From: a virus
Lineage: Duplodnaviria > Caudoviricetes
Virus record (IMG/VR): IMGVR_UViG_3300034061_004620
Strand: one strand, 5' to 3'
Length of the DNA: 64,000 nucleotides
The position numbers and the translations under genes were made by a program. Under the pieces are notes generated by a model, which made no database searches, had not been told where the DNA came from, and was given only the letters and a program-made list of their open reading frames with translations. Positions 42,833-43,185 of the stretch are shown one piece after another; position 1 is the first letter of the stretch, and every line of letters starts with the position of its first letter.

Positions 42833-43185
42833 GCTGGCACAGGCTAATATCGTGTGCCCTATACCTGGTAGAAATACACAGGGACGGAAGCCTTCTCGCT
42901 GCAAGAAGCACTCAACTACTACCCTTCGGGATGAAGATCGCAAGTGCCGCGATTTAGTTGTTTGAATAGGATTAATAAGGCTAAAAAGACGCATGAGCGA
43001 TCATGCACGTTTGTTAGATATGCTGATATATGTTTAACAAATCGCCGTTGTAAAAGAACGGAGCTCGAGGTACAGGACAACCGCCTCTGTAATGCTCTAA
43101 TATCAGTGACTGTGCTACTCGGATGAAGCGCATATATTTTTTGCCCGCCCTGGGCAAAGAGTGACTGATTAATCTGGATGAAACT
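42833..43185 (+). ncRNA. Candidate ~350-nt highly structured non-coding RNA of unknown class
   Basis: About ten stems found by eye, with GAAA (42871-74), GCGA (42997-43000) and cUUCGg (42924-29) loops; multibranch closure CAACTA/TAGTTG; candidate 9-bp pseudoknot 43021-29/43100-08; by far the largest non-coding gap in the window. Confidence 0.7.

Follow-up and report, generated by a model that had tools for sequence, protein, structure and literature searches.

One variable word kept identical in the twin boxes of a pseudoknotted phage RNA that extends the Polynucleobacter-1 motif

Introduction

Several described RNA systems display short sequence signals in pairs. In box C/D sRNAs, box C (RUGAUGA) and box D (CUGA) form a K-turn or K-loop with tandem sheared G-A pairs and a U-U pair, a fold that further needs a 3-nt bulge, a C-stem, or a short loop, and the partner proteins are L7Ae, Nop5, and fibrillarin. 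TIGR-Tas systems have a Nop-domain Tas protein beside a tandem repeat-spacer array, and IS110 bridge RNAs, adjacent to a DEDD recombinase gene, carry two internal loops with bipartite guides for target and donor. CsrA/RsmE-titrating sRNAs have GGA in each binding loop. The ncRNAs of template-jumping reverse transcriptases (RTs), such as DRT2-like systems, are encoded alongside the RT and have short identical motifs at both template ends. The boxB hairpins of nutL and nutR, read by N proteins, are near-identical RNA signals that differ between related phages; the paired signals co-vary because one reader must recognize both. Guanidine-II (mini-ykkC) RNAs have paired small hairpins whose invariant ACGR loops kiss via a self-complementary CG. 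RNA covariation analysis normally seeks complementary changes, and to our knowledge the identity constraint of direct repeats is not scored by standard tools.

The closest catalogued motif to the locus described here is Polynucleobacter-1 (RF01718), which Weinberg et al. (2010, PMC2864571) list as a candidate RNA without a known function. It matches the 5′ part of an RNA gene in a 64,000-nucleotide stretch of viral DNA (the window), in which an earlier reading of the letters alone (the sequence-only reading) had pointed out a duplicated unit consisting of fixed flanks around a different 8-nt core (N8) in each copy. That reading had proposed either twin protein-binding or kink-turn-like sites for a dimeric nuclease, or two short guide segments as in box C/D, TIGR-type, or bridge RNAs. 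In this article, we describe the whole RNA, the behavior of the two units among homologues, and the search for whatever reads them.

Homologues and their distribution

A scan of IMG/VR for the double unit returned five loci, and all of these first five homologues match RF01718, ~275 nt upstream of the units. Two further searches, one anchored on an 18-mer from the invariant core of the RNA that is unrelated to the units (>119 loci) and one using the two-unit pattern with N at all variable flank positions (at least 120 further loci), brought the family to more than 180 distinct relatives, all uncultured T4-like lake phages in which both units are always present. The duplication was found in all 118 complete loci retrieved with the 18-mer anchor; each has exactly two units, with no array and no single-box or spliced form as DNA. 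A blastn search of 50,697 cultured phage records gave no match to the region.

Six family members lie on MAG-binned contigs. Four of them (L125, L295, L297, and L303) are short contigs binned as Flavobacteriales or Bacteroidetes, with lakes as the source of at least some, L302 belongs to an unclassified bin, and L312 is a 56.7-kb contig in a Bifidobacterium bin; these assignments are a weak hint of hosts or reflect mis-binning. Three large records behind other members (G001, G002, and G003, behind L007, L081, and L133) measure 262-355 kb, carry 14-33 tRNAs, and have a two-piece, permuted tmRNA whose tags include ANDSQFALAA.

A pseudoknotted RNA of about 410 nt

The twin units are part of the 3′ domain of a pseudoknotted non-coding RNA of ~410 nt (42832-43240). 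Its structure was derived from mutual information on 93 distinct sequences and from RNAalifold on 75, the latter of which drew a few long-range pairs wrongly and missed P1, P2, and P13; double compensatory changes occur in 29 of 55 pairs (RNAalifold, 75 sequences). The elements, all on the plus strand, are as follows.

42832-42963, plus strand: 5′ domain, equal to RF01718 (cmscan), with compensatory changes in P3, P4, and P6
42836-41/42853-58, plus strand: P1
42864-70/42875-82, plus strand: P2
42890-96/42904-09, plus strand: P3, compensatory changes
42913-18/42955-60, plus strand: P4, compensatory changes
42936-41/42949-54, plus strand: P6, compensatory changes
42833-34/42843-44, plus strand: 2-bp pseudoknot (42833/42844: GC 58, AT 29)
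42964-43104, plus strand: uncatalogued middle domain (mutual information, 93 homologues)
42946-48/42979-81, plus strand: PK2 (42948/42979: CG 48, TA 41)
42991-96/43001-06, plus strand: P8, with a GNRA loop
43011-21/43030-40, plus strand: P9
43046-49/43057-60, plus strand: P12
43061-64/43094-97, plus strand: P11, enclosing an invariant 30-nt core (43061/43097: GC 48, CG 33, AT 7)
43025-29/43100-04, plus strand: PK3 (43026/43103: GC 81, AT 12)
43140-46/43152-58, plus strand: P13, a hairpin between the units (UUUGCCC/GGGCAAA)
43195-43238, plus strand: 3′ hairpin region, P14 and P15
43195-43200/43214-19, plus strand: P14, with a GA/GAA internal loop and a GC-GNRA-GC tip (43200/43214: TA 79, CG 13)
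43220-26/43232-38, plus strand: P15 (43223/43235: TA 43, CG 20, AT 4; 43226/43232: AT 42, GC 19, TA 8)

With cmscan, positions 42832-42963 of the window match RF01718 at 106.7 bits (gathering score 37, E = 3.7e-23). The match spans the whole 141-position model, and the twin units lie outside it. The Rfam model covers just the 5′ third of the actual RNA, because the covarying fold runs from ~42832 to 43240; beyond the model, the RNA continues for ~280 nt with two more pseudoknots, the invariant core, the twin boxes, and two 3′ hairpins. Moreover, Polynucleobacter-1 was initially supposed to precede a regulated gene, whereas the actual RNA comes after a nuclease gene.

Two structural candidates were rejected. 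A pseudoknot between 42908-12 and 42943-47 (GCACU with AGUGC) shows no covariation, and the P6 loop pairs through 42946-48/42979-81 instead; a hammerhead-like reading of P14 fails because its flanking letters pair with one another. On the minus strand (43188-43219), P14 is followed by a run of seven U, and it could also serve there as a terminator for the convergent hub-gene operon.

The twin units

The units and their parts have the following positions, and PK3 ends one base 5′ of unit 1.

43105-43127, plus strand: unit 1, AGTGACTG-TGCTACTC-GGATGAA
43160-43182, plus strand: unit 2, AGTGACTG-ATTAATCT-GGATGAA
43105-10, plus strand: (A)GUGAC of unit 1
43111-16/43127-32, plus strand: stem of unit 1, with box 1 in its loop
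43117-27, plus strand: box 1, ACUC-GGAUGAA, code letters 43121 (R1), 43125 (R5), and 43127 (N7)
43160-65, plus strand: (A/U)GUGAC of unit 2
43166-71, plus strand: spacer of unit 2
43172-82, plus strand: box 2, AUCU-GGAUGAA, code letters 43176, 43180, and 43182

The description of two N8 units with the same flanks and spacing, offset by 55 nt, thus holds at these coordinates. With up to 2 mismatches allowed, the twin units are the sole two matches in the 64-kb window, and shuffled controls gave a mean of 0.10 matches, with two matches reached in 0 of 100 shuffles. The strong hairpin that had been proposed between the units is also borne out: P13 occurs in every homologue, and its pair 43142/43156 switches between T-A (78) and A-T (10) among the 93 homologues. 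The word GGATGAA has three copies on the plus strand of the window, all inside the twin-box RNA. The third copy (42929-35), which the sequence-only reading had also listed, does exist but is part of the RF01718 domain and does not change with the two boxes; it varies by a rule of its own, in which 42932 (U/C) covaries with 42922 (C/U). This covariation is of a non-Watson-Crick kind (C/U in 47 sequences versus U/C in 46) and joins the base preceding a CC-loop-GG hairpin to the U/C within the third GGAUGAA.

Cores, spacers, and hairpin context

Across the family, a unit consists of GUGAC, a 6-9 nt spacer, and a 12-nt word, A-YYY-RGAURAN-R. The proposed check, whether N8 varies while the flanks stay fixed, came out mixed: N8 does vary, but its last 4 nt are invariant (ACUC in unit 1, AUCU in unit 2), the remainder being 2-5 nt of variable length, and three flank positions vary. 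ACUC in both units occurs in no true family member. N8 is accordingly not the invariant core that would favor a structural role, nor is the duplication missing anywhere, since it is universal in homologues and N8 varies.

The two units differ in their pairing. In unit 1, the spacer and the end of GUGAC pair with the linker after box 1, and box 1 is thereby placed in a hairpin loop; this stem co-evolves, as judged by duplex energies, which are better for own than for swapped arms (p = 1e-5). In unit 2, the same arm test detected no co-evolving stem (p = 0.21), and the stretch is weakly paired. The first pyrimidine of the word and the base after N7 behave as a closing pair: a pair of the C43118-G43128 type is found in unit 1 in 95% of 165 sequences, and the possible counterpart in unit 2 (U43173-A43183) is U-A or U-G in 90%.

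This variation is unlike that of guides, with the last 4 nt fixed and the remainder of unit 1 forming a stem arm, and it speaks against N8 cores as free guides. Other readings of the cores were also rejected. Complementarity between the spacers of units 1 and 2 is seen in one clade (UGUUCA/UGAACA) and is not general (p = 0.23), and fixed-register hairpin models for both units give no consistent pairing. A mini-ORF reading (GUG to a URA stop) was dismissed because spacer lengths differ by non-multiples of three. Antiparallel kissing of the loops predicts A in box 1 with G in box 2 as the best state, a state that was never seen.

Identity coupling of the two boxes

The code-like letters are three positions of the supposedly fixed 3′ flank (R-GAU-R-A-N), which change in step between the units. 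Among 93 homologues, 43121/43176 is GG in 60 and AA in 33 (100% identical), 43125/43180 is GG in 66 and AA in 27 (100% identical), and 43127/43182 is AA in 51, TT in 36, GG in 5, and A/T in 1 (99% identical); in the same sequences, the code columns share at most 0.2 bits with any other RNA column. On a tree built without the units, joint changes number ~17 for R1, 4 for R5, and 10-11 for N7, with 0-1 exceptions. An unbiased scan found the same 7-mer in both units in 178 of 179 distinct contexts among the matches listed, with 8 words in use. When 596 Gb of bacterial genomes were scanned with this pattern for control, the two words differed in all 32 chance matches and agreed in all six true family members found there.

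Over ~13 positions, each letter of one box is coupled in register to its counterpart in the other. The coupling extends to rarer letters, with GCAUAAU in both boxes of one homologue (L045), that is, C/C at position 2, and coupled C/C and G/G variants at the A before YYY (L048 and L005); looser coupling reaches two positions upstream as well as positions +2 and +3 past the word. R1 and R5 are limited to purines. Directed scans of all IMG/VR yielded 3 distinct cases of unequal boxes at R1 and 3 at N7. The mixed R1 cases always have G in box 1 and A in box 2, never the reverse. Exceptions are mostly A/U: A/T at N7, T/A at position -1 in 34 sequences, and A/T at position -2 in 14. The constant differences between the boxes are all transitions (CUC versus UCU, and G versus A after N7).

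The data require the two boxes to be equal, and since the same variable letters stand in both in almost every relative, something presumably reads one short code twice.

Comparison with known paired-motif RNAs

As in the C′/D′ K-loop and in tigRNAs, two GA-rich motif pairs (GUGA and GAUGA) bracket a short variable stretch, and tandem G-A/A-G and U-U pairing like that of box D/C can be drawn on paper. This drawable pairing counts in favor of the units as short guides or kink-turn sites that arm the adjacent GIY-YIG nuclease. The kink-turn itself fails, however: the sequence offers neither a C-stem nor a 3-nt bulge, and in 14 of 93 homologues (15%) the A of GUGA in unit 1 that would be sheared is replaced by G. 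Unlike in box C/D RNAs, GGAUGA(A) is accompanied here by GUGA rather than CUGA, the variable stretch is partly a stem arm with the unit 1 spacer pairing with the downstream linker, and the code-like letters sit inside the "box C" part.

The box C/D, TIGR, and bridge-RNA readings are likewise contradicted by absent partner proteins, by the count of exactly two units, and by the lack of targets. Searches of five large relatives, of which two are at least 99% complete, found no L7Ae- or Nop-type domain (PF01248 and PF01798), while the positive controls scored. Unlike TIGR-Tas loci, the locus has no Nop domain; its neighbors are the GIY-YIG nuclease, a 72-aa ORF, and a baseplate hub gene, and 118 of 118 loci have two units. 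IS110 (PF01548) is also absent from the five large relatives, and complements of cores or words are not enriched there.

Two further candidates were set aside. A CsrA/RsmE-titrating sRNA does not agree with a word that starts AGA in 84 of 179 distinct family members among the matches listed, and for a DRT2-like RT ncRNA the identical motifs are present but RVT_1 is absent from the five large relatives. The likeness to nutL/nutR lies in two near-identical short signals per genome that differ among relatives; here, however, both signals are 55 nt apart in one folded RNA, they change far more often, and a co-varying reader gene was not found. Like Guanidine-II RNAs, this RNA has two small elements with the same loop sequence as a pair, yet its loops vary in step and have no mutual complementarity that explains the coupling.

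The neighboring nuclease and gene context

The gene directly upstream of the RNA is the following.

42398-42832, plus strand: 144-aa GIY-YIG nuclease (PF19835, E = 9e-34; phrog_447)

The RNA starts right at the stop codon of this gene, and the SegE-type GIY-YIG domain makes up nearly all of the protein (PF19835 covers residues 3-129 of 144). In 171 of 197 loci the gene immediately precedes the RNA; almost all the others are truncated on that side. This near-constant adjacency, in essentially all loci with enough sequence, and a protein that is almost wholly GIY-YIG domain would suit a nuclease armed by the units. Against such a partnership, the same family (phrog_447) occurs in 490 cultured T4-like phage records, and in the three cultured loci inspected a 148-nt gap, a tRNA, and a 29-nt gap lie behind the nuclease gene, where a 410-nt RNA cannot fit. 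Furthermore, no nuclease residue tracks the boxes (maximum 0.17 of 1.0 bit). The GIY-YIG nuclease is a conserved neighbor, not the box reader. Taken with the partly fixed, partly stem-forming core, the variable A of GUGA, the missing Nop, L7Ae, IS110, and RT genes, and targets that are not enriched, these results leave the guide or kink-turn explanation largely refuted and very unlikely.

In two loci (L115:1257-1769 and L119:7962-8474), a PD-(D/E)xK nuclease (PF24608) fills the GIY-YIG slot upstream of the RNA; either homing-type nucleases are drawn to the RNA gene, or a nuclease of some kind is required in this position. Proteins of the PF19835/phrog_447 family are labeled "NAD synthetase" in many cultured cyanophage and rhizobiophage GenBank records, which looks like a propagated mis-annotation of the nuclease domain.

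Homing-type nucleases next door, and an identical 7-bp core with fixed flanking differences that resembles the overlap region of a recombination site, would also agree with repeats that act as DNA, either as crossover or binding sites for recombination or as twin homing-nuclease sites. We give this alternative hardly any credence: the repeats lie between helices with RNA-type compensatory changes, plus-strand G-U pairs included, a deleted single-box form is found in 0 of 118 loci, the 55-bp spacing is short for recombination, and no recombinase is nearby.

The other genes around the RNA are T4-like and comprise the convergent 72-aa ORF and the baseplate hub gene. In the window, a radical-SAM/SDR cassette (38688-42391) lies between the gp46-like and GIY-YIG genes; in most relatives, the gp46-like gene (589 aa) is found ~1.8 kb upstream of the RNA without this cassette. 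The window also contains a 4730-aa open reading frame on the minus strand (7327-21519).

Search for a reader

The reader is neither the N8 core nor the neighboring nuclease, and no conserved phage nucleic acid qualified in the sequences searched. None of 13 other neighboring protein clusters and no DNA column from -700 to +2000 tracks R1, the best neighboring residue or DNA column reaching 0.16-0.5 bits, compared with 1.0 for the boxes. The complement of the word is absent from the RNA and from the 64-kb window and has no consistent place in the loci, and neither word nor complement is enriched over other words in 1.6 Mb of flanks.

The search was extended to five large relatives, three of which were analyzed as whole records and two of which are at least 99% complete. 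Neither the word nor its complement is enriched in these five, and the pattern TYATCYRRRT occurs in them at control level. Among own-word and anti-word 7-mers in conserved contexts of the three large records, the two boxes alone change to the word of the other genome. Three or four extra anti-box 10-mers in G002 and G005 are within chance, and the one perfect 13-mer anti-box, found in G001, falls within an accessory ORF that has no homologue in G002 or G003. The idea that paired complements of the cores might reveal targets in the phage accordingly found no enriched target, either in flanks or in the five large relatives.

That a partner was found nowhere else, whole phage records included, raises an alternative without an outside reader, in which the boxes would read each other in parallel, in the same direction and like with like, as a clamp of the 3′ domain around P13. 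The pairs would be A-A, G-G, U-U, and rarely C-C, with reverse Watson-Crick A-U where the letters differ. The in-register coupling over ~13 positions and the near absence of mixed G/A boxes agree with such pairing, as does the predominance of A/U exceptions, which suit reverse Watson-Crick pairs and are the worst case for a shared Watson-Crick reader; the 48-nt linker, too, permits a parallel arrangement. However, we know of no multi-base parallel like-with-like helix in natural RNA, and the closed hairpin loop of box 1 restricts the positions that can pair outward. Nor does this pairing explain the fixed CUC/UCU and G/A differences, two of which resemble an ordinary C-G/U-A closing pair, the restriction of R1 and R5 to purines, or the asymmetry of mixed states (G/A seen, A/G never). 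Overall, we regard it as unlikely. The same low probability is all that we assign to a broader speculation, namely that there is either parallel like-with-like pairing or a fast-changing "bar code" read twice by a factor of the host or of a rival phage in an arms race. If true, like-with-like pairing would constitute a new RNA tertiary element whose signature is identity, not complementary, covariation.

Expression and possible processing

Three studies provide RNA-library contigs, all from relatives, in which the nuclease gene and the 5′ domain are covered; one of these contigs bridges the nuclease gene and the RNA. The metatranscriptome contigs come from relatives at 88-95% identity, and they leave the twin boxes of this exact sequence uncovered, which does not imply absence. 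Expression of the RNA is therefore weakly supported, because DNA carry-over is possible. One metatranscriptome contains a 140-nt insert, bounded by adapters at each end, that covers 42827-42966 and matches the RF01718 domain alone; the 5′ domain may exist as a separate stable fragment.

This adapter-flanked insert, a hint of sub-fragments, bears on the possibility that the boxes are twin processing sites, at which one sequence-specific endoribonuclease would cut both loops and free ~55 nt with P13, the ends perhaps being rejoined. Such processing would resemble the twin-loop cleavage of HAC1/XBP1 mRNA or the processing of CRISPR repeats, and two equal words, one of them in a hairpin loop, do flank a conserved hairpin. 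However, an enzyme that reads the invariant letters alone would not force the variable letters to match, and the 118 loci contain no single-box or spliced DNA form; we therefore hold twin processing to be quite improbable.

Interpretation

The best reading, which we hold tentatively and at somewhat below even confidence, is that one word is displayed twice to a single bivalent reader encoded elsewhere. From the earlier proposals, the idea of twin sites for one, possibly dimeric, reader thus survives as the best, without the adjacent nuclease in that role. On this model, the RNA would present two copies of a short single-stranded word, both of which would be read by a single partner or by two molecules of it, with the RNA acting as a bivalent adaptor or decoy; a change in one box would then be tolerated only when the other box follows. 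The candidate reader is most likely encoded by the host or at a distance from this locus, and could be a dimeric sequence-reading protein, a nuclease cutting the two loops, or a host RNA whose pairing tolerates wobble.

The transition-only differences between the boxes and the presentation of the word in a loop fit a shared reader. Several points weigh against the bivalent-reader model, depending on the kind of reader. A protein would need many changes of specificity. A reader using Watson-Crick and wobble pairs should tolerate mixed G/A boxes more than observed and would not confine R1 and R5 to purines, and the missing partner, together with the near absence of mixed G/A boxes, counts against a simple Watson-Crick reader.

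Significance

In this RNA, the letters of two direct repeats, offset by 55 nt, have changed many times independently and yet stayed equal, without a partner that explains this. In addition, the motif catalogued in 2010 covers only part of a widespread phage RNA that is much larger and contains three pseudoknots. As the phages are uncultured, the finding has little practical use at present. Identifying the reader would assign the RNA a function and might uncover either a new tertiary motif or a novel means by which RNA presents a bivalent code.
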